Below are positions 7,254 to 50,526 of a stretch of DNA of 64,000 bases, piece by piece. Under the pieces are notes generated by a model. That model searched no databases and was not told where the DNA came from. It saw only the letters and a program-made list of their open reading frames with translations. Made by a program: the position numbers and the translations under genes. This DNA comes from Acidimicrobiia bacterium (GTDB lineage Bacteria; Actinomycetota; Acidimicrobiia; Acidimicrobiales; JANYDT01), in the NCBI GenBank assembly GCA_031368215.1, contig JANLRD010000135.1, positions 11,805 to 75,804 on the forward strand, read 5' to 3'. Within the stretch, counting starts at the first letter, position 1; each line of letters starts with the position of its first letter.

Positions 7254-7266
7254 TTGCCGGTGGAAT

Positions 7267-7374
7267 AGTGCACTGAGTCGGAAGTTCCTGTTACATCGAT
7301 CCTTTTGGACAATGCGCCGAAAGACAACCAATCAGCGCCATTCGATGTCGCAGGAACTTCCGCGAAGATGCACT
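7267..7374. repeat. long interrupted inverted repeat filling the RNB/htpX convergent intergenic gap
   Basis: Arms lie at 7267-7299 and 7342-7374. The perfect 12-bp core is cggaagttcctg / caggaacttccg. 25 of 33 arm positions are complementary. The stretch is locally AT-richer. Confidence 0.6.
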
Positions 7375-8302
7375 AAAGCTCGCGAAGGGCGTCGATGCGC
7401 TCGCTCAGCGGAGGGTGCGTGTCGAACATGCGATTGAGCCACGACAGCTTGCGCTCATTGCCCGGCTGCTCCTCGTCCGACGATCGGGGCATAGGCGATT
7501 CGATCCAGAGGTGCGCTGTTGCCCGCGAACCCGAGTGAACCACCGTCTGGTCATCGCGCAACTTCTCAAGTGCACTTATCAACCCAGGGGGATACCGCGT
7601 GATGGTCACCGCCGTGAGATCGGCGAGAGACTCCCGCTTGCGGGACACCGCGAACTGCATGAGCTTCGCGACGAGCGGGGTAATCACCAGCAACACGATG
7701 CCGAGCACCGCCACGAGCTGGGCTGCACCGTTGCCGTTGTTATCACGGTCGTTGCGATGGCGGGGGCCGCCCCACCACAGGAACCGCAGCGCCCAATCCG
7801 ACATCAGCGCGACGACCCCGACCATCGTGACGGCCAGCGTCGACACGAGGATGTCGCGGTTCTTGATGTGGGAGAGCTCGTGCGCCAGCACGGCCTCCAG
7901 CTCCACTCGATTCATCTTCGCGAGCAACCCCGTGGTGACCGCGATCGCCGCGTGCTTCGGGTCGCGGCCTGTGGCGAAGGCGTTCGGGGCGTCATCCTCG
8001 ATCACGTAGAGCCGCGGCTTCGGCACGCCGCTGGCAATGCACAGCCCCTCGATGAGATTGTGAAAGCGCGCATAGTCGGCCTGCGAGGCCGGACGGGCGT
8101 GGCTCATGGACAACGCCACCGCATCGCTCTTCCAGTACGCCAGTCCCGACGTGGCCACCGTGAACGCGACGGCGAGGATGAGTCCGACCGGGCCTCCGCC
8201 GACCACTGCGTTGAACGCCCACGAGGCCGCCAGGACGACCAGGACGAATGACGCGATCAGCGCGATCGAACGTCGCCGATTCGACGCGACGACATCAAAC
8301 AT
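7373..8302 (-). CDS. htpX: M48-family zinc metalloprotease HtpX
   Basis: ORF 7373..8302. It has HELSHIKNRD (HExxH), hydrophobic TM segments and a C-terminal FDTHPPLSERI. Confidence 0.9.
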   Translation of the reverse strand: MFDVVASNRRRSIALIASFVLVVLAASWAFNAVVGGGPVGLILAVAFTVATSGLAYWKSDAVALSMSHARPASQADYARFHNLIEGLCIASGVPKPRLYVIEDDAPNAFATGRDPKHAAIAVTTGLLAKMNRVELEAVLAHELSHIKNRDILVSTLAVTMVGVVALMSDWALRFLWWGGPRHRNDRDNNGNGAAQLVAVLGIVLLVITPLVAKLMQFAVSRKRESLADLTAVTITRYPPGLISALEKLRDDQTVVHSGSRATAHLWIESPMPRSSDEEQPGNERKLSWLNRMFDTHPPLSERIDALREL

Positions 8303-12472: not shown

Positions 12473-12553
12473 CGTACCGGGGCGGCCCGGCTAGCCGTTG
12501 GCCTGGTCGGTTTCCCGGCTCCGTCTGTCCGTCCGTGCGGTGCGGGTCGACGT

Positions 12554-12626
12554 TGCGGCTGGACACCTCCCAGCGCTGTTGGGAGGTGTCCAGCCCCCAT
12601 ATATGGGGGCAACCTCTCTCCCAACG
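12554..12626 (+). repeat. double-hairpin intergenic repeat, copy 1
   Basis: Sequence tgcggct ggACACCTCCCA gcgctgt TGGGAGGTGTcc a GCCCCCATATATGGGGGC AACCTCTCTCCCAACG. Hairpin 1 has a 12-bp stem. Hairpin 2 is an 18-nt perfect palindrome. The element ends 2 nt from the HIT stop codon. Confidence 0.85.
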
Positions 12627-12628
12627 CG

Positions 12629-13186
12629 TCACCAGGCGGCGCGGAGCTTTGACCAGGTGGTGGAGAGGGCTTCGGGGACGACTCGGGTTTCGGCGATGGC
12701 GGTCATGAAGTTGGTGTCGCCGTCCCAGCGGGGGAGCGCGTGGATGTGGAGGTGGCCGGGGATGCCCGCACCCGCCGCGCGTCCGAGGTTCGCTCCGACG
12801 TTGAGGCCGCCCGGGTTGTAGGCCCGGGTGATGGCGCCGGTGGCGTGACGGACGAGCGCCCACACCTCGGTGTGCTCAGCGTCGTTCAGTTCACCCAGGG
12901 AACCGACGTGGCGGATCGGCATCACCATCAGGTGACCGCTGGTGTAGGGATACGCGTTGAGGATCACGATGGCATCGTTTCCCCGATGCACGATGAGGTT
13001 CCTCTCGTCGGAATTGCCATCGCTGTCCGACCTCAGGATCCGGCAGAACACGCATTGGGCTTCGTCGCCCGCGACCAGTCCTGCTGCCGCGTGGGCGTCT
13101 TCCTCGGCCGCGACCTTCGTGATGTAGTCGCCCCGCCACGAGGCATCGAGCCGTCCGAGCGCCGGTGACGGATCGCCGGAGTTCAC
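12629..13186 (-). CDS. HIT-family nucleotide hydrolase/phosphorylase (Rv2613c-like)
   Basis: ORF 12629..13186. Motifs: CVFCRI, NAYPYTSGHLMVMP, histidine triad GHLHIHALPRW. It overlaps the thrS stop by 4 nt. Confidence 0.9.
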   Translation of the reverse strand: MNSGDPSPALGRLDASWRGDYITKVAAEEDAHAAAGLVAGDEAQCVFCRILRSDSDGNSDERNLIVHRGNDAIVILNAYPYTSGHLMVMPIRHVGSLGELNDAEHTEVWALVRHATGAITRAYNPGGLNVGANLGRAAGAGIPGHLHIHALPRWDGDTNFMTAIAETRVVPEALSTTWSKLRAAW

Positions 13187-22826: not shown

Positions 22827-22973
22827 CCCCGCCGCACATCGAGGCTCCCATGCCGCACATCGCCTCACCCTTGCCGCAGATCGACCGTTTTCGTGCCGGA
22901 ACGTCGGAAAATTGGTCGATGTGCGGCGTGGAGGGGCTGATCTGCGGCGGAGAAGGGCTGATGTGCGGCGGGC
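22827..22973. repeat. inverted array of six 21-bp-phased GCCGCA(C/G)ATC decamers
   Basis: Forward decamers start at 22831, 22852 and 22873. Reverse-complement decamers start at 22918, 22939 and 22960. A 35-nt partly palindromic centre separates them. The array lies between two convergent stop codons. Confidence 0.8.
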
Positions 22974-28030: not shown

Positions 28031-28156
28031 GCCCCAGTCTGGCCCACCCGCCGCGGCAGTGACATCCGGCGTCGTTTCGTTCTCATGCGTACCGTCGTCG
28101 ATCGTCGTCGGCGGTGCCGGGTCCTCGCACAGCCCGCGGAGCCAGCTCGTTCGCAG

Positions 28157-29500
28157 TCACGAACGGTCGGCTCGGAGGCGCCGCACCGTTGGCGATTCGA
28201 ACCGGATAGGAAGAACGAGACGAAAGCGCGGCGAGGGTCCGGGCGCATCGAGGCTGAGCCGGCCGCCCTCAGCGTGCGCGAGGGTTGCGGCGAGCGACAG
28301 ACCGATTCCGTGTCCTCGCGCGCCGGGTGCCCGACGAGCGAACGCGGTTTCGGCGTCTTTGAGCCCGGTGCCCTGATCGTCGACGGTGACCGTCACGTCG
28401 GTCCCCTCGTGGCCTCCGACAGTCACGGTGACGGTTCCGTTCCCGTGCTCGAGCGCGTTGTCCAGCAGAACCGTGACGATGTTCTCCAGGGCCGAACGCG
28501 AGAACATCGCACGTCGGTCCCCTCGATCGGGAGCATTGAGCTTGAGCATTCTTCGGTTCGCGGAGTATCTGCCGCGCTGGCGCGACACGACCCGCTCGAC
28601 CACGGCCGCGACGTCGATGACGTCGCGGTCCACGGGCTGATCGCGGGTGAGGGCAAGAAGGTGGGTGACGGTCTCCTCCAAGCGGTCGAGGTCGTCGAGT
28701 GCATCGGTGATCACGGACTCGTGATTCTCACGCGGGGCGAACAGTTCTGCTTCGAGGACCGTGCGTAGCCCGGTTATCGGCCCGCGCAGCTGATGCGAAA
28801 CGTCAGCGGAGAACGCGCGCTCGCGCTCGACCAAGTCGCCGATGCGTGCGGCCGCGGCGTTGAGTGCCCTGCCGGCCTCGTCCATCTCCCGAATGCGCGC
28901 CGGCGGGACCCGCGCGGTGAAGTCACCGTCGCCGAGCCGGATCGCTCCGAGACCCAACTGCGTAATTGGCTTCACGAGCCGGTGGGCGGCGGCATAGGCG
29001 ACGGCCGTCGCCAGGGCTAACACTGCCAAGGCCCGAAGGGTGATCAAGAACATGCGCTCACGGACGCGACCGGAGATGACCTGCGTCGGTTCTGCGACCC
29101 GAACCACGCCTGTCACCCGTGTGCCATCTCGGAGGGCGTCGGCGGCGACACGAAGCCCTGCGTGGGTGCCGACGTGTGGCTCGCCGTCGACCAGGGCGGC
29201 CTCGACGGGAGCGTCCCCGATATCCGGGCCGGCTCCGCTGACCCGGCGCTGCTGCAGGTCGTAGAGGGCGATCGTGCGTTCTTCGGTCTGCGCCTGAGTC
29301 TGCTCTTCAAGCCGCAGCGCCGCGGGGTTCGCGATGACGTCGACCGGTGCGATGCGTGCCACCCTGCTGACCTCGCGCACCAGGGAGCTGTCGGATTCCG
29401 AACGGATCCTCGTTCGCTCGACGAGAGCGAGCGGAACGGCGAACGCTACGATGGCCACCACCGCGGTTCCGACGAGTGCGACCAGGAGGCGGTTGCGCAT
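28157..29500 (-). CDS. sensor histidine kinase (TM-sensor-TM-HAMP-HisKA-HATPase_c)
   Basis: This is the 3' part of ORF 28157..29656. The ATG at 29500 lies just past the response-regulator stop at 29502. Motifs: FSADVSHQLRGPITGL (H box), LDNALEHG (N box), DDQGTGL, GHGIGLS. Confidence 0.85.
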   Translation of the reverse strand: MRNRLLVALVGTAVVAIVAFAVPLALVERTRIRSESDSSLVREVSRVARIAPVDVIANPAALRLEEQTQAQTEERTIALYDLQQRRVSGAGPDIGDAPVEAALVDGEPHVGTHAGLRVAADALRDGTRVTGVVRVAEPTQVISGRVRERMFLITLRALAVLALATAVAYAAAHRLVKPITQLGLGAIRLGDGDFTARVPPARIREMDEAGRALNAAAARIGDLVERERAFSADVSHQLRGPITGLRTVLEAELFAPRENHESVITDALDDLDRLEETVTHLLALTRDQPVDRDVIDVAAVVERVVSRQRGRYSANRRMLKLNAPDRGDRRAMFSRSALENIVTVLLDNALEHGNGTVTVTVGGHEGTDVTVTVDDQGTGLKDAETAFARRAPGARGHGIGLSLAATLAHAEGGRLSLDAPGPSPRFRLVLPIRFESPTVRRLRADRS

Positions 29501-29501
29501 G

Positions 29502-30230
29502 TCAGCAGGTCCGGTCGCCGAACTCGAGGCGGTACCCCACGCCGCGGAGTGTGTCGATCCGGACGGCGTCTCCATCGCCCGTGGCATCGCGAAGTTTGCG
29601 CCGCAATCCGGCGACGTGCACATCGAGTGTCTTGGTCGATCCGAACCAGTGCTCATCCCAGACGCGGGCCATCAGATCCTCACGCCGCACAACCTTCCCG
29701 GAATGGGCAACGAGCTCGGCAAGCAGGTCGAACTCCTTCGCCCGAAGCTCGAGCTCGACACCCCGCACGGTGACCCGACGCGACGCGTGATCGACGTCGA
29801 GCACGACCGGCGGAGCGTGTCCATCATCAAGCGACGGAGTTCTTGTTGCTGACTCGTCGGTATCGTCGCTCCGGCGGCAGTGCACCCGAATCCTCGCCAG
29901 CAGCTCGGCGAGACGGAACGGCTTGGCGATGTAGTCAACTGCGCCGGCGTCGAGGCCGACGACCACGTCGATCTCGTCGGTGCGGGCGGTAAGCATGAGG
30001 ATCCGCGGAGCTGGGCTCCGTGAGGCGATCTCCCGGCAGAGATCGACTCCGTCGACATCCGGAAGGCCCAGGTCGAGCAGCACGAGGTCCGGACGTTCGG
30101 AGATCAGCAGCTCTCGGGCACGTTCGCCGGTTTCGGCCCGTGATACGTCGTATCCCTGACTGGTCAGCGCGCGTACGAGTGGGTTCGCAATCCGGTCATC
30201 GTCTTCGACGACGAGGATCCGACCCCTCAT
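29502..30230 (-). CDS. OmpR-family response regulator
   Basis: This is the 3' part of ORF 29502..30782, from ATG 30230. Motifs: MRGRILVVEDDD, LVLLDLGLPDVDG, KPF, and the winged helix LRAKEFDLLAEL...LRGVGYRL. Confidence 0.9.
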   Translation of the reverse strand: MRGRILVVEDDDRIANPLVRALTSQGYDVSRAETGERARELLISERPDLVLLDLGLPDVDGVDLCREIASRSPAPRILMLTARTDEIDVVVGLDAGAVDYIAKPFRLAELLARIRVHCRRSDDTDESATRTPSLDDGHAPPVVLDVDHASRRVTVRGVELELRAKEFDLLAELVAHSGKVVRREDLMARVWDEHWFGSTKTLDVHVAGLRRKLRDATGDGDAVRIDTLRGVGYRLEFGDRTC

Positions 30231-30334
30231 GTCACCGGCACCGTCCACTCCCGGGACCCTAGTGGGTTCGTCGTGAGGACCGACTGAGAGCTCGGGTCCC
30301 CAACGGAGTACTTCGACGAGGGACGCCGGGTGGT

Positions 30335-33300
30335 TCATGCCGCGGTCTGGAGGTCGGCCTGTACGGACGGGAGGACCCCCGCAACCGTTCCGTAGCGGGT
30401 CACCGTCCTCCAGTAATCGGTCTCGCCGCCGAGCCACTTCGTCATCGAAGCGCCGATGGCATACAGCTGTATCGGTCGCCACACGAGACGAAGCAACGGG
30501 ACACACAGCAGCATCGACCAACGTTCTCGGTTGAGCACGACCACGACAGCACAGACAGCGAGGTCGGCGGCAACCGACAGCGCCACGACGCCGCCGGCCT
30601 CGTTGAAGTTGTGAACAAGCAACAGGTAGGCGAGGAAGAGGTCCGTGAACGGACCGAACAACGGCAGCACCACCTGGGACAGGAGCATCCATGGGAGCCC
30701 GAAAAGGCCCACTCGACCACCGCCGCGCGACAAGAGGCGGCGCTCGTGTTTGCCAAGCAGCTCGATGGTGCCGAAGGACCAACGCCGGCGTTGACGGATG
30801 ACGTCTCGCATCGTCTCCGGTGCCTCGGTATGGGCGATCGCCCGGGGTTCATAGGGGATCGACCATCCTGCGGAGAGGAGCGTGACGGTCAGGTCGGCGT
30901 CTTCGACGAGCGTGTCCGTGCTGTACCCACCTGTGCTGAGGACAGCGGATCGTCGGAACGCTCCGGCGGCCCCGGGCACCACCGCCATGACATCGGCCGC
31001 AGCCTGAGCCCGCCGGTCGAGGTTCAGCGAGACCACGTACTCGAGTGCCTGCAATTTCCCGAAGAGCGTCTTCTGGTTGCCGACCTTGACGTTGCCGGCG
31101 ACTGCTCCGACTCTGGGGTTGTCGAAGTGCGGCAGCATGGCCTCCACGAGGCCGGCGTCGACGACCGTATCGGCATCGATCACCACAACGATCTCGCCGC
31201 AGGCCTCCGAGAACGCGAGATTGAGCGCGCCGGCCTTCTTCGACGCGCATTGCGAGATGACGCGGACTGCGGGGTCCCCGGCCGCAGCCTGCTTCGCGAG
31301 GGTCGCGGTGTCGTCGGTCGATCCGTCGTCGATGACCAAGATCTCGATGGCGCCCCGGCCTTCGGGATGCCGCAACGCCTGCAGCGATGTGACCGTCTTG
31401 GCGATGACGACGGCTTCGTTGTGCGCCGGCACGGCAATCGTCACGGTCGGCCAGGGAGCGCCGGTCCGAGGGGCGGTGGCGGGCGGTATGCGGCGGCGCC
31501 ACCTTCGATGACGCGCAGCCTGCAGCAGGGCAAGTGGCACCGACCATACGAGCCGCGCGATCGACAACATCGCTACGACGGCCAGGAGGAGCAGAGTCGT
31601 TTCCCGGCCGGCCACCCACATCCGAAAGCCGGCGACGATGGCCAGGCCTCGAAGACGGGCGAAGACGCCGTCACGCGGCGCGTAAGGCGACCCGATCGAG
31701 CCATCCAGCCCGTCAACCGTGGTGAAGAGATAGCCCCGCCGCTTCAGATCCTCGATGATCCGCGGCAGTGCAGCGAGCGTTTGCGACCGGTCGCCACCGC
31801 CGTCGTGGAGGAGTACGACGGATCGCTCTTGCATCTGCGACGCGACTCTCGTGGCGATCGTCGCTGCCCCCGGCTGTGCCCAGTCCTGGGGGTCGACGTT
31901 CCACGCCACGGCGTGCTCCCCGAGATCGTTGGCGAGTTGATCACCGCCAACCTTCTTGCCGGACATGTCGCCGGCCCCGTAGGGCGAACGGAACAGAACC
32001 GCCTTGTGGCCCGTGATGCCCTCGATCACTGCTGCCCCGCCCAGGATCTCGACCTTGGCACGCAGGGTGCTTATCGTTGCGAGATTCTTGTGGGAGTAAG
32101 TGTGGTTGCCGATCACATCGCCGTCACGCATCGCTTCCCGAACCAGGCCCTGATGCTGCTGGGCTTGCTGGCCGATCACGAAGAACGTGGCTGGCACATG
32201 CTCGCGTCGCAACACCCCCAGGAGTTTCGGAGTCCAGCGGGGGTCGGGGCCGTCGTCGAAGGTCAGCGCCACGACACCGTTTACATGCACGTTCTCAACG
32301 GCACGTGACCCGCGTGCTCGAGTGTGGGAGGGCGATGCCAGCGGCCGCTGGCGCTTTGCCGCGGCGGGCAACGCGCCAAGCGCCCCCGGCTCCTCCGCAC
32401 CGACCCGCCACAGCGCCACACCTCCGAGGTGACGATCGAGGGCGAGTTGGGAGCGCAGCGCCATGGAACGGCGGTCGGGATACCAGATCGTCCGGTGATC
32501 GGCGAGCGTCCCGGTTGCCTCGCCGGCCGCGGCATCGAAGGACACCCTGGCGCCTGGCGCTGCCGCAAGGGCCGCAGCCTGACGAGCCGAGTATTCGACT
32601 GCGTGACCGGGCGCGGACCATGCGTACCCGTATGACGCAATGCCGAGCAGGAGCTTCGACGACGGGATCCAGCGGCGCGCCAGGTCCAGGCCCGCGCGTG
32701 TCCAGTCGAGCGAGGCGATCGGGCCGGCCGCCGTAGTCAGCTCGTGCTGGTCGTACGCCATCCACGTCACCCGGTCTGCCGCGCGGGCGATGGCCTTCAT
32801 GTCATAGGCGACAAGGTCCGGATCTTTCGGGTCCGTGAACGCGGGAACGGCCACGTCCATCGTGCGTGATCCGAGTGCCTCATGCAGATCCCTGAGGAAC
32901 GACGGGAACGAACGGCGCACCCCCGGCGTGAGGTTCTCGAAATCGATGACGACGCCGTCCCACCCCTTCTGCGAGATGAGCTTGGTAAGTGCACTTATCA
33001 CCTCGCGTCGTGAGTGCGGATCATCGAGTAACCGTTCGACCCTGTCCCCGTTGAACTTGCTGCCGTCGAAGTTCGAGACGACAGCGAGCGCGCGCGTGAG
33101 CTGAGCGTGGGCCCTGACCAGCGTGTCGCTGGCATCGGCGACTTCGAGTGTCCCAGATTTCTGTCCCAGGGTGATGCCGGTCGCGGCAAGCGAAGTCACA
33201 CTGGTGACATCAGCGTCCACGCCGGCTGACGTGTCCTCGTAGTCGGACGCGACATAGCCGAGGACGTCAAACGAGGGCCGCGCGTTCGTCAACGGTGATG

Positions 33301-33622
33301 ACGTCCTCGTCGCGGCCGACTCTGCGGACAGGTTGATCACCAGAGGCGAGGGCCGCTGAGAATATACGGGAAGAGCTAGAGCGGCCACAACCCCACAGAT
33401 CAACAAGACCGTTGTGGTGGCGATGGCCGTCCGACGAAGACGTCGCGGGCCGCGCCAATGAACAGCGGCGTAGATGGCCGCGACTGAAACACCGAACACT
33501 GCGGCGACGAGACCATCGACCGTTGCGAGCGCAGCCATGACGACGGCCACGACGGTAACTCCGATGATCTTGCGCGGTTCGACGCGTCGCGCCGCGGGGG
33601 TTGCCGTCGGGAAGAAGGCCAT
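30335..33622 (-). CDS. three-domain exopolysaccharide enzyme: GH18-like / CE4 (NodB) deacetylase / processive GT2 synthase
   Basis: ORF 30335..33775, with the ATG at 33622 (MAFFP) preferred. GH18-like: GWDGVVIDFENL. CE4: VALTFDDGPDP and GNHTYSH. GT2: LVIDDGSTDDT, VIDADT, VEDADLT, QRRRWSFG. TM segments lie at both ends. Confidence 0.85.
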   Translation of the reverse strand: MAFFPTATPAARRVEPRKIIGVTVVAVVMAALATVDGLVAAVFGVSVAAIYAAVHWRGPRRLRRTAIATTTVLLICGVVAALALPVYSQRPSPLVINLSAESAATRTSSPLTNARPSFDVLGYVASDYEDTSAGVDADVTSVTSLAATGITLGQKSGTLEVADASDTLVRAHAQLTRALAVVSNFDGSKFNGDRVERLLDDPHSRREVISALTKLISQKGWDGVVIDFENLTPGVRRSFPSFLRDLHEALGSRTMDVAVPAFTDPKDPDLVAYDMKAIARAADRVTWMAYDQHELTTAAGPIASLDWTRAGLDLARRWIPSSKLLLGIASYGYAWSAPGHAVEYSARQAAALAAAPGARVSFDAAAGEATGTLADHRTIWYPDRRSMALRSQLALDRHLGGVALWRVGAEEPGALGALPAAAKRQRPLASPSHTRARGSRAVENVHVNGVVALTFDDGPDPRWTPKLLGVLRREHVPATFFVIGQQAQQHQGLVREAMRDGDVIGNHTYSHKNLATISTLRAKVEILGGAAVIEGITGHKAVLFRSPYGAGDMSGKKVGGDQLANDLGEHAVAWNVDPQDWAQPGAATIATRVASQMQERSVVLLHDGGGDRSQTLAALPRIIEDLKRRGYLFTTVDGLDGSIGSPYAPRDGVFARLRGLAIVAGFRMWVAGRETTLLLLAVVAMLSIARLVWSVPLALLQAARHRRWRRRIPPATAPRTGAPWPTVTIAVPAHNEAVVIAKTVTSLQALRHPEGRGAIEILVIDDGSTDDTATLAKQAAAGDPAVRVISQCASKKAGALNLAFSEACGEIVVVIDADTVVDAGLVEAMLPHFDNPRVGAVAGNVKVGNQKTLFGKLQALEYVVSLNLDRRAQAAADVMAVVPGAAGAFRRSAVLSTGGYSTDTLVEDADLTVTLLSAGWSIPYEPRAIAHTEAPETMRDVIRQRRRWSFGTIELLGKHERRLLSRGGGRVGLFGLPWMLLSQVVLPLFGPFTDLFLAYLLLVHNFNEAGGVVALSVAADLAVCAVVVVLNRERWSMLLCVPLLRLVWRPIQLYAIGASMTKWLGGETDYWRTVTRYGTVAGVLPSVQADLQTAA

Positions 33623-33793
33623 GTCGCCATCATGTGCGGTGTCGGGCAAACGGTCGGCAAAGCCCACGACAAGAATCGGTTGCCAGGGTTTTGCCTTCCG
33701 GTGGTGCTGCACGGTCCGGCCGTTAACGCGCCCCCCGTCACGATCAGCGCACCTCCCGGTACCAGCCGGGTTCATCGAACAAGGAGCACTGCA

Positions 33794-34246
33794 ATGCGTC
33801 GTACCCTCATCATCTCGTGCATGACTCTGGCGGCCGCCGCCTTCGGCATGACCGCCGCATCGGCTGCCCCTGCAACGACCTCGCCCGCTGCAACGACCTC
33901 GCCCGCTGCAAGCAAGACCCCGACGACAGCGAAGTCCATCGTGTCTTCCACCGAGAAGGCGGTCCAGGCGGTCAAGAAAGCAGCGACGACCCCGGCGGTG
34001 AAAGCTGCCTCACCGATTGCCGCGACTCCGAAATCTGTCTCACCGAGTACGGCGAGAAAGAAGGTCAACATCAACACGGCGAGCAAGGCGCAACTCGAGA
34101 GCGTGAAGGGCATCGGCCCCGTGATGGCATCCGAAATCATGAAACACCGGCCCTATACGACCGTCACGCAGCTCGAGACCAAGCTTGCCAAGAAGTTCTC
34201 CGCGAAGACGGTCAAGAAGATCGAGCCGAACGTCACCATCGGTTGA
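33794..34246 (+). CDS. secreted ComEA-like helix-hairpin-helix DNA-binding protein
   Basis: This is the 3' part of ORF 33632..34246. The ATG at 33794 follows AAGGAG (33781-33786). Signal peptide: MRRTLIISCMTLAAAAFGMTAASA. A T/P/A-rich linker follows, then VNINTASKAQLESVKGIGPVMASEI (HhH). Confidence 0.75.
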   Translation: MRRTLIISCMTLAAAAFGMTAASAAPATTSPAATTSPAASKTPTTAKSIVSSTEKAVQAVKKAATTPAVKAASPIAATPKSVSPSTARKKVNINTASKAQLESVKGIGPVMASEIMKHRPYTTVTQLETKLAKKFSAKTVKKIEPNVTIG

Positions 34247-34306
34247 TCGATCGGTCCGACCCCGGGTCCACTTCTGGGTGAGTTCGGCGCTCCTGCGCTG
34301 ACCGGT

Positions 34307-34343
34307 GAAAGCGTCGCTCCTTCCCCAGAGGAGCGACGCTTTC
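34307..34343 (+). terminator. 15-bp perfect stem-loop downstream of the ComEA-like gene (no U-tract)
   Basis: gaaagcgtcgctcct (34307-34321) pairs with aggagcgacgctttc (34329-34343) around a 7-nt loop. It lies 61 nt after the stop. Confidence 0.5.
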
Positions 34344-34575
34344 GCGCGGTCACTGCCTTCGGCGCGACGATCGACCGGCACGACTCGGGTTTCACGGCGC
34401 CCCGCTGGAGCGGAGGCCGACACCGCCGACCGCCGAGGGAGCCCACACGCGATTGACGGGCTGGCGAGGGGGCACACCAGCCCGTCGAGTTACCTGATCA
34501 GCGTGCCTGATTCCTGCCCCAGCTGTCGAACAGTTGTCGGTGATGTCTTCGATCATCAGAACAGATGACGCTCCC

Positions 34576-34604: not shown

Positions 34605-35624
34605 ATGCTTTCCACGATGACTGATGTGCGCCCCGAGGACCGGGCGCTGCTGGCGGAACTGTCGGGTGCAGCAGAGCGTCTGCTGGAGCGCCACCTCGCC
34701 ACGTCCAAGCCCTGGTACTCCCACGAGATCATCCCCTGGTCGCTCGGACGGGACTTCGTCCCCGGTGAAGCGTGGTCCCCCGACGACGTGGTCCTTCCCG
34801 ACGCGGTGCGAAGCGCACTGTTCGTCAACCTCTTGACAGAGGACAACCTTCCGTACTACTTCGAGACCATCGACCGGATGTTCGGCAAGAACGACATCTG
34901 GGGCACCTGGTCGCATCGATGGACGGCGGAAGAGGCACGGCACTCGATCGCCATCCGCGACTACCTCGTCGTCACCCGGGCCATCGACCCGTGGGCACTC
35001 GAAGACGCCCGCATGGCGCAGATGAGCGGCGGTGAGGTCCCCCAACCGCAGACGGCGGCCGACGGCTTCGTCTACGTTGCGCTGCAGGAGCTCGCCACCC
35101 GCATCTCCCACCGCAACACCGGCAAGCTGCTGCAGGCCGAGATGGAAAAATCGGAGCATCCGGCGGCGCGTGCCGGGTACGACGTCATGGCCCGCGTCGC
35201 AGCCGACGAAAACTTCCACTACCTCTTCTACCGTGACATCACGTCGGCGGCCATCGAGGTCGATCCGTCGTCGGTCGTGTGCGCCATCGACCGCCAGATC
35301 AGCGACTTCGAGATGCCGGGTACGGGGATCGTCGGCTTCTCCGAGCACGCTCGGGCGATCGCCAGCGCCGGCATCTACAACCTGCCGATCCACTACGGCC
35401 AGATCCTCGCGCCAGTCGTCCTTCGTCACTGGAACCTCGAAGGCATCGAGGGCCTGAGCGCCGAGGCCGAGCAGGCCCGCGAGCGCATCGTCACGCTGCT
35501 CGGCCGCCTCGAGAAGGCGTCTGCCCGAATGAACGAGCGCACGGCACGCCGGGCGGCGCGGGCCGAGGCCGACGGCGCACCGGCCCGCACGGTGATCGCC
35601 GACGACGACCTCGTCACCGTCTGA
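34605..35624 (+). CDS. acyl-ACP desaturase (soluble di-iron, DesA1/DesA2-like)
   Basis: ORF 34605..35624. Motifs: LLTEDNLPYY, WTAEEARHSIAIRDYL (EExRH), ALQELATRISHRNTG, DENFHYLFY. Confidence 0.9.
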   Translation: MLSTMTDVRPEDRALLAELSGAAERLLERHLATSKPWYSHEIIPWSLGRDFVPGEAWSPDDVVLPDAVRSALFVNLLTEDNLPYYFETIDRMFGKNDIWGTWSHRWTAEEARHSIAIRDYLVVTRAIDPWALEDARMAQMSGGEVPQPQTAADGFVYVALQELATRISHRNTGKLLQAEMEKSEHPAARAGYDVMARVAADENFHYLFYRDITSAAIEVDPSSVVCAIDRQISDFEMPGTGIVGFSEHARAIASAGIYNLPIHYGQILAPVVLRHWNLEGIEGLSAEAEQARERIVTLLGRLEKASARMNERTARRAARAEADGAPARTVIADDDLVTV

Positions 35625-35716: not shown

Positions 35717-35789
35717 TGCGGCCAAACACCTCCCAACCGCGTTCAGAGGTGTTTGACCCCCATATATGGGGGCAACCTCTCTCCCAACG
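35717..35789 (+). repeat. double-hairpin intergenic repeat, copy 2
   Basis: Sequence tgcggcc AAACACCTCccaaccgcgttcaGAGGTGTTT ga CCCCCATATATGGGGG c AACCTCTCTCCCAACG. Confidence 0.85.
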
Positions 35790-35813
35790 GGTTGGGGCCG
35801 GTACGGTGGTGGT

Positions 35814-37217
35814 GTGTCTGTCGATCTTGGTGCGGGGCCTCTCACGACGACGCAGGCATTGGCGTTCACCTCTCGGGTGCGGGCCGGGCACAAGGGCATC
35901 GTCAGCGCCGGACTGACCACCCTCGACGGCCGCCTCGACGAGCGCGAGATCGTGGCGTTCGTCATCGAGCAATCCGACCGTGGGGGTGCCATCGACGCCG
36001 ACGACGGCGAAGTGCTGGCCGAGGCTGCCCATCTGGCGCTGTCGCTCCGCCGCCCGCTGGTCGGGGTGCTCCACTCGACCGGGGTCGACGTCAATGCCGG
36101 GCTGGCTGCACTCCATGGCTGGGGACGGGCCGCCCGTGCCCTCGCCGATTGCTCCGGCCTCGTCCCCGTGGTGCTGGTGGTCGACGGAGCCGCGGTCTCG
36201 GGTGCGGCACTTCTTCTCGGCCTCGCCGATCTTGTGATCATGACGAGCGTGTCCTACGCCTTCGTCAGCGGTCCGTCGATGGTCGCGGACTTCACCGGAA
36301 TGATCCTCGACAAGGAAACGCTCGGCGGCGCCGCCACCCATGCGCGCCAATCCGGCCTTCCGGCCGCGGTGGTCGACGACGTCACGTCGGCGCTCGACAT
36401 TGTCGCCACGCTCCTCTCCTACCTTCCCGACCATGGCGACGCGCTTCCGCCGGAGATCCCGACCGACGACCCGGTTGAGCGCGACGCCCCGGAGCTCAAT
36501 GAGCTCATTCCGGCCTCATCGACCGGGAGCTACGACGTACGGGCCGTGGCCCGGGCGGTGTGTGACGCCGAGTCGGTCCTCGAAGTACGGGCCCGTTGGG
36601 CGCCCAATCTCGTCACGGCGTTCGCGACCGTCGGCGGGAGACCGATCGGCATCGTCGCCAACCAGCCACTCGCCCTCGCCGGGACGCTCGACATCGCGGC
36701 CGCGCAGAAAGGCGCCTGGTTCGTGGCGCTGTGCGACTCGTTCAACCTCCCGATCCTCACCCTGGTCGACACGCCCGGCTACTTCCCGGGGAAGGATCTC
36801 GAATGGCGGGGCATGATTCGCCACGGAGCGCAGATGGCCTTTGCCTACGCCGAGGCCACGGTGCCGCGGGTCTGCGTCGTGCTGCGCAAGGCCTACGGCG
36901 GCGCGTTCATCGTCATGGACTGCAAGACGATGGGCAACGACCTCTGCCTCGCCTGGCCCGTCGCGGAGCTGGCGGTAATGGGAGCCAAGGGTGCCGTGCA
37001 GATCCTCTACCGCCGTGAGAGCGAGCAGGAGCGGCTGGTCCGCGAGCTCGATTACGCGGCCGAGTACCTGAACCCCTACGTGGCCGCGGAGCGCGGGTAC
37101 GTCGACGCGGTCATCGAACCGGGAGACACGCGGCGACTCGTCGCCAGGTCGTTCGACCTCTTGCGGACGAAGCGGGAGATGCTTCGGGGGAAGAAGCACG
37201 GCAATTCACCACTCTAG
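35814..37217 (+). CDS. acyl-CoA carboxylase carboxyltransferase (beta) subunit
   Basis: ORF 35766..37217. Motifs: IGIVANQPLALAGTLDIAAAQKGAWFV, LVDTPGYFPG, RKAYGGAFIVM. The longest ORF starts inside the repeat, so I placed the start at in-frame GTG 35814. The start is uncertain. Confidence 0.85.
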   Translation: MSVDLGAGPLTTTQALAFTSRVRAGHKGIVSAGLTTLDGRLDEREIVAFVIEQSDRGGAIDADDGEVLAEAAHLALSLRRPLVGVLHSTGVDVNAGLAALHGWGRAARALADCSGLVPVVLVVDGAAVSGAALLLGLADLVIMTSVSYAFVSGPSMVADFTGMILDKETLGGAATHARQSGLPAAVVDDVTSALDIVATLLSYLPDHGDALPPEIPTDDPVERDAPELNELIPASSTGSYDVRAVARAVCDAESVLEVRARWAPNLVTAFATVGGRPIGIVANQPLALAGTLDIAAAQKGAWFVALCDSFNLPILTLVDTPGYFPGKDLEWRGMIRHGAQMAFAYAEATVPRVCVVLRKAYGGAFIVMDCKTMGNDLCLAWPVAELAVMGAKGAVQILYRRESEQERLVRELDYAAEYLNPYVAAERGYVDAVIEPGDTRRLVARSFDLLRTKREMLRGKKHGNSPL

Positions 37218-48908: not shown

Positions 48909-50300
48909 GTGAGCGTCTCGGTCCTTCTCCGATGCGCGGGGTGCGCGGCGACCGTCGACCCGCTCGATGTCGGCGCCCCCGCGCCGTTCAGCTGTCCGAA
49001 CGCTGTTCGCGCCCCCAACGTCGACCACGTGCTCACCTGGGATCCGCTGCTTGCGGGGGTGCGTGAATGGCCTGACGACACGTCGACCAATCCGTTCCTC
49101 CGCTACCGAACGCTCCACCACAGCTATCACCTCCACCTCGGTCTCGGAGGAACCGATCCCGAGTACGTTCGGCTCGTCGAGCGCCTCGACGCGGCGTTGA
49201 TCAAGAACGGAGGGCCCGGGTTCCGGGTCGCTCCGTTGCTCCCGCTCGACGCGCTGAGCACGGCAACGGGCACGGATGTCTGGGTCCGCGATGACACGAC
49301 CGGTGTCGCGGGTTCCCACAAGGCCCGGCACCTCATGGCGATCCTCTTGCACCTCGAAGTCCGCAAGGTGCCGCTCCGCACCCCGTTGGCCATCGCTTCG
49401 TGCGGCAACGCGGCGATTGCTGCGGCCACCCTCGCCCGCGCCGCCGGGCGAACCGTTCAGGTCTTCGTGCCGACCTGGGCGAACCCGGTGGTGCTCGTCG
49501 AACTCCGGTCGCTCGGCGCCCGTATCGTCGAGTGCCCTCGCAAGGAGACCGATCCTCCGGGTGATCCCTGCCTGCATCGCTTCCACGAAGCGGTGGCGAA
49601 GGGTGCGCTTCCGTTCTGCGTGCAAGGTCCCGAGAACGGGTTCACGATCGACGGTGGAGCGACATCGGGACAGGAACTCGTCGACGCATTTTCCATGCTC
49701 GGGGTACCCGACCGTCTGTTCGTCCAGGTAGGCGGGGGAGCATGGGCTTCGGGCGTGTGGCGCGGGCTCCGCGACGGGCGCGGGCTTGGGGCGATCGACC
49801 GGCTTCCCGCGCTGCATTGCGTGCAGGCCAAAGGCTGTGCGCCGCTCGTGGAGGCGTGGCGCACCGTTGCCGGACGCGCGCTGCGAGCGTTGGGCCACGA
49901 GGAACTGTTCGATGAGGGCTTCGACGTGGTCGCCTCTGCGCTGGTCGCGAACGAGGCACGCAGTGCCGTCGAATCGGCCATGCAGTGGGCACTCACCCAC
50001 CGACCCGCGGTTATGCCGGTGTGGCACGATCCGCACGGCGTGGCGACCGGGATCCTCGACGACGAGGCCTACGACTGGGCCGTGCTGGTGCGGAGCATGC
50101 TCGTGAGCGGCGGCTGGCCCGTCACCGTGTCCGACGACCAGATCGCCGCGGCAACCACGTTGGTGAACGCCGGGTCGATCGACGCCGATGAGACCGGATC
50201 GGCGGCCGCCGCGGGACTCGTAGCGTTTCGAGAGCAGCACTGGGGCGTTGCCGACGAACGCGTCGCCGTTACCGTCACCGGGATCCGCCGGCGTCGGTAG
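48909..50300 (+). CDS. threonine-synthase-like fold-type II PLP enzyme
   Basis: ORF 48909..50300. It has an N-terminal CxxC-x16-C element. Motifs: DDTTGVAGSHKARH (PLP Lys context), ASCGNAAIAAA, VQVGGGAWASG. Confidence 0.8.
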   Translation: MSVSVLLRCAGCAATVDPLDVGAPAPFSCPNAVRAPNVDHVLTWDPLLAGVREWPDDTSTNPFLRYRTLHHSYHLHLGLGGTDPEYVRLVERLDAALIKNGGPGFRVAPLLPLDALSTATGTDVWVRDDTTGVAGSHKARHLMAILLHLEVRKVPLRTPLAIASCGNAAIAAATLARAAGRTVQVFVPTWANPVVLVELRSLGARIVECPRKETDPPGDPCLHRFHEAVAKGALPFCVQGPENGFTIDGGATSGQELVDAFSMLGVPDRLFVQVGGGAWASGVWRGLRDGRGLGAIDRLPALHCVQAKGCAPLVEAWRTVAGRALRALGHEELFDEGFDVVASALVANEARSAVESAMQWALTHRPAVMPVWHDPHGVATGILDDEAYDWAVLVRSMLVSGGWPVTVSDDQIAAATTLVNAGSIDADETGSAAAAGLVAFREQHWGVADERVAVTVTGIRRRR

Positions 50301-50354
50301 CGGGTACGCCGAAGCAGGGGGTGTGGCTCAACGCCGCCAGCGTGGACGGTTGGT

Positions 50355-50398
50355 CGTGTTTGCGAGCGGAGCGAGCTGCGTAACGCCGGGCACGGGGG
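50355..50398 (+). repeat. possible accessory module of the repeat family (module B)
   Basis: cgtgtttgcgagcggagcgagctgcgtaacgccgggcacggggg resembles 62207-62259 downstream of copy 4. By-eye alignment gives about 31 of 39 aligned positions plus an 8-nt insertion. Confidence 0.45.
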
Positions 50399-50471
50399 TG
50401 CCGCTAAACGCCTCCCAGGGCCGTTGGGAGGTGTTTTGCCCCCAGATATGGGGGCAACCTCTCTCCCAACG
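50399..50471 (+). repeat. double-hairpin intergenic repeat, copy 3
   Basis: Sequence tgccgct AAACGCCTCCCA gggccgt TGGGAGGTGTTT t GCCCCCAGATATGGGGGC AACCTCTCTCCCAACG. The 12-bp stem contains one G.T pair. Confidence 0.85.
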
Positions 50472-50526
50472 TTCCCCTGAGGAGTTCCGCCGGGCTCCGG
50501 TGATGACGAGCTAGCCTGGCGAACGA

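Follow-up and report, generated by a model that had tools for sequence, protein, structure and literature searches.

A family of polar double-hairpin repeats at gene ends in a narrow clade of Acidimicrobiia

We describe here a family of intergenic double-hairpin repeats (element A), found in the 64,000-nt window (the whole stretch of Acidimicrobiia DNA that was analysed; G+C content 66.7%) and in related genomes, together with its anatomy, its position and polarity relative to neighbouring genes, its restriction to one clade, the conservation of its sites between species and the constraint on its sequence. With about even confidence we read element A as a domesticated REP/BIME-like repeat that spread in the past in one ancestor and may now be a gene-end module acting at the 3' end of the transcript. 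The sharp ends, the expansion in one clade and the existence of empty sites argue for past mobility, by a mechanism that would leave no target duplication, and the fact that old orthologous copies are still constrained suggests a present role. This role would most likely be exerted in cis, on the transcript end of the preceding gene. We infer that the element acts at the RNA level and has a part in termination or stabilisation.

Anatomy and modular arrangement

A preliminary description of the window had listed four near-identical copies at 12554-12626, 35717-35789, 50399-50471 and 62122-62189/90. All four were recovered at these positions on the plus strand, 73 nt each, copy 4 lacking the final bases of its tail. 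The 28-nt core CCCCCATATATGGGGGCAACCTCTCTCC occurs four times in the window at up to three mismatches and not once in 100 shuffled sequences, and a search of the window with the 18-nt tail motif returned only the same four places. The features referred to below are as follows.

12554-12626, plus strand: element A copy 1 (core search, repeat search and folding; orthologous copy in related locus L032)
12554-12559, plus strand: TGCGGC of copy 1
12559-12574 and 12578-12593, plus strand: arms of hairpin 1 of copy 1
12593-12610, plus strand: hairpin 2 palindrome of copy 1
12611-12626, plus strand: tail of copy 1, AACCTCTCTCCCAACG
12629-12631, minus strand: TGA with which the HIT-family gene (12629-13186) stops, separated by 2 nt from the copy 1 tail
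35717-35789, plus strand: element A copy 2, flanked by a fatty-acid desaturase gene (stop 35624) and by a carboxyl-transferase gene
50338-50398 (approximate), plus strand: degenerate remnant of module B (GTGGACGG..TTGCGAGCGGAGCGAGC..GCCGGGCACGGGGG) that immediately precedes copy 3
50399-50471, plus strand: element A copy 3, flanked by a PLP-dependent enzyme gene (stop 50300) and by ruvC (start 50527)
62122-62189, plus strand: element A copy 4, 30 nt past the stop of an ABC-3 permease gene; the tail ends after CTCTCTCC
62190-62289, plus strand: module B, with core GTGTTGCGAGCAGTCGAGCGAAGCGAGCGGCGCAGCGCC and its own degenerate tail, ending directly at the stop (62290-62292) of a converging 425-aa gene
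About 12487-12492, 35811-35816 and 50512-50517 in the window, and about 2538-2543 in related locus L097: TANNNT hexamers

Each copy consists, in this order, of TGCGGC, hairpin 1, hairpin 2 and a pyrimidine tail ending CCCA-RYG. Hairpin 1 has up to 16 pairs around the invariant core AACACCTCC/GGAGGTGTT, with CACCTCC and GGAGGTG unchanged in all copies; hairpin 2 is GCCCCC-ATATAT-GGGGGC; the tail is AACCTCTCTCCCA followed by R-Y-G. The preliminary description was right on the consensus, on hairpin 1 with its variable top and loop and on the 18-nt palindrome of hairpin 2, perfect in copy 1 alone. It was also right on the invariant tail, except for the bases missing from its end in copy 4; the orthologue of this copy in L017 has a complete tail. 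The genes around the window copies were confirmed by Pfam, and the distances to stop codons also stand as first given: copy 1 ends 2 nt from the stop of the minus-strand HIT gene (TCA at 12629-12631), and copies 2, 3 and 4 begin 92, 98 and 30 nt past plus-strand stops. Open reading frames have been called across element A, in L100 (6738-7409, a public gene call) and in the window (50248-50514, by a GC3-based caller), and the element can therefore seed spurious ORFs or false N-terminal extensions in annotation. The window also holds inverted repeats that are unrelated to element A, at 7266-7375 (34-nt arms, 76% complementary) and 22828-22972 (64-nt arms, 70%).

The genome-wide pattern search proposed in the preliminary description found further copies: a scan of the GTDB representative genomes with CCCCCANATNTGGGGGCAACCTC matched at least 92 stretches in relatives. 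Among the matches listed, all of these belong to five Acidimicrobiia MAGs (JANOJN, JANPFX, JANMYF, JANPDB and JANOHI) that come from glacier-fed streams. A sixth related assembly also carries the element, and the carrier genomes number seven, namely that of the window, the five MAGs and GCA_043720055.1. The copy set used here comprises 99 pattern-matching copies (those of the window and of the at least 92 listed loci).

In the alignment of copies, conservation sets in abruptly at the T of TGCGGC and stops at the G of RYG. These sharp boundaries lie at -40 and +32 relative to hairpin 2, and the flanks are random. No information content was found in the 50 nt left of TGCGGC, and no conserved target motif stands beside either end (~0-0.2 bits). 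Standard copies have neither terminal inverted repeats nor target duplications. Most copies are singlets with a random left flank; about seven of ~100 are symmetric, each end bearing a hairpin 2 and a tail (L009, L045, L046, L051, L054, L075 and L084), with ~45-nt inverted arms and TG...CA termini, and the five of these examined by eye have no target duplication. A decayed left arm of a formerly symmetric element was rejected as the origin of the singlets, there being no residual signal left of TGCGGC. In bystander copies, which the search pattern had not picked out, the tail and the G-C stem of hairpin 2 are retained and the hairpin 2 loop varies; the ATG of this loop is missing from ~17-20% of copies.

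A second repeat module (B) of ~85 nt, overlooked in the preliminary description, ends in the same tail as element A and directly follows that tail in 28 of 101 copies. It is laid out as a variable 15 nt, the core GTGTTGCGAGCAGTCGAGCG-N-AGCGAGCGGCGCAGCGCC, ~10 variable nt and the tail GGGGCAACCTCTCTCCCA-RYG. On the gene-sense strand the body of B is C-rich (41.5% C, 27% G), in which it resembles a putative Rho loading site. Module B follows copy 4 in the window and is absent from the same site in L017. The orthologue of copy 3 in L020 is without a 68-nt stretch (about 50302-50369) covering the first half of the B remnant. At least nine orthologous groups have A in one species and A+B in another, the difference always being exactly one tail-to-tail unit; it could reflect an insertion, or a deletion between two 19-nt direct repeats. 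The arrangements seen are A, A+B, A+B+B, B'+A and symmetric, with one tail common to all modules. Since A and A+B alternate by one tail-to-tail unit, the family is mosaic in the manner of BIMEs.

Scans of IMG/VR viral contigs for the tail and the B core, and of PLSDB plasmids for the A+B unit, gave no match. Rfam, against which the preliminary description had wished the copies to be checked, has no match at any of them at gathering thresholds, and an E-value scan of 62100-62300 (copy 4 and module B) reached 18.9 bits at best, the threshold being 55. The sole gathering-level Rfam match in the window is the ASdes sRNA (34932-34999, minus strand, 43.8 bits vs a threshold of 40), antisense inside the fatty-acid desaturase gene 34605-35624. 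The desA1 gene of M. tuberculosis is known for the same antisense ASdes arrangement.

Position relative to stop codons and conservation of sites

Genes at the related loci were called with a crude and imperfect GC3-based caller, and a converging gene was recognisable beside 52 copies. The tail of A, or of the last B, lay 0-9 nt from the stop of this gene in 41 of the 52 and within 14 nt in 45. All three stop codons (TGA, TAG and TAA) are used, and the stop never falls within the element. Same-strand upstream stops lie 16-98 nt from TGCGGC, and at 15 nt or less in merely two of 46 cases. On its sense strand, the abutting gene is followed, after the stop and a gap of 0-9 nt, by the purine-rich tail complement (16 nt), then by hairpin 2 and finally by hairpin 1. 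Copies 1 and 4 of the window obey the tail-to-stop rule, the latter through B. Copies 2 and 3 belong to another class, sense to the upstream gene and with the tail towards the start of the next gene; about one third of all copies, these two included, are oppositely placed relative to the upstream gene. Some 20 copies lie between convergent genes. The arrangement of HIT stop and element A tail recurs in L032, L099, L100 and L101, and the site is empty in L097.

The common orientation noted in the preliminary description is real for the four window copies, all of which are on the plus strand, but single contigs of related genomes carry both orientations. The all-plus pattern of the window is a chance effect of a small sample. 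What matters is how a copy faces the adjacent stop codon: the tail lies against the stop of an opposite-strand gene.

Two features of the surrounding DNA were also recorded. TANNNT hexamers (TACGAT, TACGGT, TAGCCT and TACGCT) occur 6-10 nt upstream of the starts beside the copies and are conserved between species, which suggests leaderless or very short-leader promoters and a placement of the elements between transcription units. The DNA on the TGCGGC side is hypervariable in length and sequence at several sites; in L101 (6684-7204, MAG OTE_8) the spacer from the TGCGGC end to the next gene is ~400 nt, compared with 58-81 nt elsewhere.

All four window sites are occupied in related species (copy 1 in L032, copy 2 in L022 and L087, copy 3 in L020 and copy 4 in L017). 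The related loci were fetched by their carrying A, and the four window sites and the HIT site are those at which site stability was tested free of that bias. The HIT site is filled in six genomes and is empty in GCA_965186675.1, which has a 32-nt spacer there (HIT protein 83% identical). The copy 4 site is empty in GCA_031368095.1, with a 26-nt spacer between convergent stops and a neighbouring protein that is 79% identical. About 75 kb from relatives with ~65-83% identical neighbouring proteins contained no module, the density in the window being 1 per 16 kb. From the empty sites and the module-free relatives we concluded that the family expanded in, and is confined to, one narrow clade. At L093 (3077-3133; HIT 68% identical) the whole 57-nt gap between the convergent HIT and luciferase-like genes is occupied by an unrelated near-perfect nested hairpin, GGAGTGATTT..GGCGCTC-TCA-GAGCGCC..AAATCACTCC, which may represent a different family of gene-end palindromes. 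Two related MAGs (L022 and L087) lack, in their orthologous regions, a 6.4-kb stretch of the window (28073-34446). Its products are a response regulator, a histidine kinase and a protein of 1146 aa with domains of the GH18, polysaccharide deacetylase and GT2 (chitin-synthase-like) types; its borders showed neither a transposase nor a repeat.

Across 45 pairs of orthologous copies, element A was 90% identical over all 73 columns and 86% identical over the 52 columns not fixed by the search pattern. The far flanks, mostly coding, were 88.7% identical, and the 60 nt adjoining TGCGGC were 72% identical against a baseline of 61% for unrelated sequence. Non-orthologous copies reached 85% over all columns and 80% over the unfixed ones. 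The variable columns differ between orthologues nearly as often as between paralogues, and the core columns never vary. The orthologue of copy 1 in L032, for example, is conserved, and the spacer adjoining it is not. We concluded that the core is under constraint, because it is invariant while the free positions and the neighbouring intergenic DNA have diverged. This column pattern is what purifying selection, or conversion, leaves behind, and not what recent spread does.

The first alternative is a purely selfish element of the REPIN or PATE kind with no host function, which we consider unlikely. Its hairpins would be recognised by a transposase encoded elsewhere in the genome, either a single-copy HUH enzyme (RAYT or IS200-type) or another kind, the position at stop codons would reflect tolerated insertion points in a compact genome, and the uniformity of the copies would come from turnover or gene conversion. 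Such an element would be expected to show what is seen here: sharp ends with a hairpin near both and no terminal inverted repeats or target duplications, expansion in one clade whose relatives have empty sites, and gain and loss of B modules. The ancestral spacers of just 26-32 nt already hold the -10-like hexamer of the next gene and so offer few harmless insertion points, and REPINs persist by vertical descent for long periods (bioRxiv 10.1101/2021.07.10.451892). The orthologous copies weigh against it, however, since their free positions are near saturation and their core is invariant, and recognition by a transposase protects no old, immobile copies. Tolerance alone would explain neither the fixed polarity nor the restriction of the 0-9 nt spacing to the tail side. 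The two hairpins are unrelated to each other, unlike the ends of IS200/IS605 elements or REP doublets. The preliminary description had also suggested a search for a RAYT or IS200-type gene. The 725 kb surrounding the copies yielded none: tblastn with approximate RAYT and IS200 TnpA queries, a weak test, gave a best E-value of 0.36 and no Y1-transposase-like ORF; the genes between paired copies are housekeeping ones (typA, tdk and dnaE-like).

Folding and candidate functions

The domesticated-repeat reading places the action of element A on the transcript, and the predicted hairpins are very stable (z-scores of -2.6 to -7). In a 95-copy alignment, compensatory change in hairpin 1 was found only at its base (39 doubly changed cells vs 27.5 +/- 3.7 in shuffled alignments), a value reached by 1 of 500 shuffles in a test that is inflated by relatedness among the sequences. 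More than half of the copies have a mismatch at pair 13 of this hairpin. The stem of hairpin 2 is fixed by the search pattern, so no covariation signal is obtainable from it. The preliminary description had proposed a mutually exclusive fold in which the tail pairs with the 3' arm of hairpin 1. This pairing exists and is the predicted MFE structure for copies 2 and 3 and altogether in 10 of 99 copies (91% of the helix is paired), but it has no covariation and contains a C-C mismatch in half of the copies. The structured RNA that had been put forward is thus weakly indicated, by covariation at the base of hairpin 1 and not by any in the alternative helix. Hairpin 1 on the plus strand has 103 G-T against 46 A-C pairs (14 vs 1 at pair 7) and is more stable on that strand by 1.2 kcal/mol, whereas the energies of the whole element are equal between strands. 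The G-T excess favours folding of the plus strand; the predicted whole-element energies give no strand preference.

The head of element A (TGCGGCTGGA-CACCTCC in copy 1, 12554-12572; consensus TGCGGCAGAACACCTCC) resembles, with a one-base gap, the 3' terminus of bacterial 16S rRNA, which we take to be TGCGGCTGGATCACCTCC. Hairpin 1 looks like this terminus paired to a Shine-Dalgarno sequence, a likeness that was noticed post hoc and could be due to chance.

The events that we envisage for a domesticated repeat are as follows. Element A would have proliferated in the ancestor of one narrow group of Acidimicrobiia, as a non-autonomous mobile element whose copies landed in the first few bases past stop codons with fixed polarity. 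Afterwards the copies would have stayed at the same sites across species with their core sequence held constant. Stable sites and a constant core suggest that the element serves the host, or at least that some factor recognises its sequence specifically. The two stable hairpins might then cause pausing or termination, possibly together with Rho, or block 3' exonucleases, and the 16-nt tail would set the distance between the stop codon and the first hairpin at ~16-25 nt. Canonical terminators are largely missing from high-GC Actinobacteria, and the way in which their transcripts are ended remains a matter of debate. Hairpin-plus-T-run terminators were at background here (8 found vs 7.3 expected; 9 vs 8.0), and it is this lack of an excess, together with the gene-end position and the very stable hairpins, that implicates the transcript 3' end. 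A hairpin barrier alone needs no near-invariant sequence, so a binding factor has to be assumed as well. The terminator module considered in the preliminary description agrees with the gene-end position and disagrees with the absence of a U-tract after a hairpin on both strands, which also counts against the gene-end reading, as do the third or so of copies with the opposite placement and the fact that neither a transposase near the copies nor a target motif or duplication defines a mechanism of insertion. A canonical intrinsic terminator was rejected, since no T-run follows either hairpin on either strand; the only matches of a terminator scan inside a copy were two weak stems, both from the tail region in copy 4 and neither of them hairpin 1 or 2.

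A bolder form of the domesticated-repeat reading, which we regard as quite doubtful, makes the element the general gene-end signal of the clade, with the 16S-mimicking hairpin 1 linking translation termination to the fate of the transcript. A single burst would have placed it with fixed polarity in the first 10 nt behind the stops of at least 100 genes, and its dedicated sequence-specific reader could be the ribosome or some protein with affinity for the 16S 3' end.

Very low probability is given to a translation-linked RNA switch, in which hairpin 1 is a covalent mimic of the duplex between Shine-Dalgarno and anti-Shine-Dalgarno sequences. A ribosome terminating 0-9 nt away would cover the complement of the tail, decide which helix forms and thereby control exposure of GGAGG, the output being expression of the downstream gene or mRNA decay. 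The invariant CACCTCC and GGAGGTG, the two near-isoenergetic predicted folds, a stop codon distance within the ribosome footprint and the likeness of the 5' 17-19 nt of the element to the 16S 3' end speak for such a switch. The alternative helix, however, has the mismatch and the missing covariation described above, the ~20 copies between convergent genes have nothing downstream to regulate, the spacing from GGAGG to the start is usually too long, and the loop ATG of hairpin 2 is dispensed with in about one copy in six to one in five.

It is equally hard to credit a family of DNA-level binding sites, in which the palindromes and tail are bound as double-stranded DNA by a nucleoid-associated, topological or regulatory protein and the copies are intergenic only because a 73-nt site cannot fit inside a gene. 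Gyrase and IHF do bind at BIMEs. The arms and the tail are conserved in sequence beyond what pairing demands, hairpin 2 can be a perfect 18-bp palindrome whose centre is AT-rich in a genome of 67% GC, and no clear strand preference in folding emerges. The centre of hairpin 2 is nevertheless free to vary in bystander and symmetric copies while the G-C stem is kept, as expected of a hairpin more than of a dimer operator. The excess of G-T over A-C pairs in hairpin 1 argues for a single-stranded form, and there is no obvious reason at the DNA level for polarity towards stops.

Several other candidates were discarded. Integron attC sites share CCCAAC/GTTGGG with the element, but the copies are 11-23 kb apart, in both orientations and without an array; those of the window sit among housekeeping genes (thrS, ruvC and accD-like). 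Readings as parS-like sites or uptake sequences fail on spacing, context and length. A small ORF starting at the hairpin 2 ATG and coupled to the next gene was rejected as a general explanation because the ATG is often missing; its stop overlaps the next start in copy 1 and comes ~35 nt earlier in L099.

Comparison with known systems

The REP/BIME-like element was the best fitting of the three options in the preliminary description, the family being abundant, extragenic, palindromic, mosaic and limited to one clade. Like the REP, BIME and REPIN sequences of Proteobacteria, element A is short, extragenic and palindromic, has many copies per genome, is inherited vertically at stable sites, and combines palindromic units with other short motifs in variable arrangements. 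Many E. coli REPs also lie close behind stop codons. Element A probably does not belong to REP proper, with which it has only these general features in common. A REP is a 20-40-nt palindrome with a GTAG-type head, whereas element A has 73 nt, two unrelated hairpins, a single-stranded tail of 16 nt and no GTAG-type head at either end. REPINs are inverted doublets, whereas all but about seven of ~100 element A copies are singlets. REPs have a RAYT transposase; for element A no RAYT was found in the 725 kb searched, and there is no sequence similarity to the REP system. The REPIN-RAYT system is described mainly from Gammaproteobacteria, and the host of element A belongs to an actinobacterial class.

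PATEs, which derive from IS200/IS605, are like element A in having no terminal inverted repeats or target duplications, in their strand asymmetry and in a hairpin that lies a few to ~16 nt inside each end. This origin was rejected, since the ends of element A have no target tetra- or pentanucleotide, hairpins 1 and 2 are dissimilar and unrelated, and no TnpA was found; a search for TnpA or TnpB near the copies found none, and the IS605-related RNAs of Rfam gave no match. BOX elements of pneumococcus, Correia elements of Neisseria and ERIC are modular, ~100-150 nt long and transcribed with their neighbours, and can affect mRNA processing. Element A is likewise modular and of similar length, and its rare symmetric variants have inverted arms. 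Standard copies of element A differ from them in being without inverted termini and target duplication, for which reason a MITE of a DDE transposon was likewise rejected, and we know of no cognate DDE transposase for these copies.

The closest analogue in position and conservation is probably TRIT of Mycobacterium, with which we compared element A by its published description, so that the analogy is one of position and conservation only. The TRIT family, reported only from Mycobacterium, numbers 147 palindromic copies that are conserved in sequence and confined to a narrow range of distances from stop codons (PMC3152330). Both families are actinobacterial, lineage-restricted and palindromic, with sequence and structure conserved, copy numbers of the order of 100 and a very narrow distribution of distances to the nearest stop codon; for both, a binding factor has been proposed to explain the conservation of sequence (for TRIT, PMC3152330). 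Most TRITs extend into the 3' end of the coding sequence (around -8), whereas element A never includes the stop, and TRIT is one long, largely bidirectional palindrome, whereas element A is asymmetric and polar; no sequence relationship was seen. In later Term-seq work, TRITs overlapped only 2-4% of mapped M. tuberculosis termination sites (bioRxiv 10.1101/2022.06.01.494293), and a terminator reading of element A calls for caution for that reason.

A literature search for Acidimicrobiia and REP found no paper, nor did we find a published description of element A, which documents REP/BIME-like repeats in a class for which the literature searched held none. It offers a defined sequence for testing termination, pausing or 3'-end protection, and stands as a second lineage-specific gene-end repeat beside the contested mycobacterial TRIT. 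In our best reading, element A is a new family of REP/BIME-type repeats and no new kind of system; what appears new is its unusual design, an asymmetric double hairpin with a tail, in a lineage where no such family was found described.
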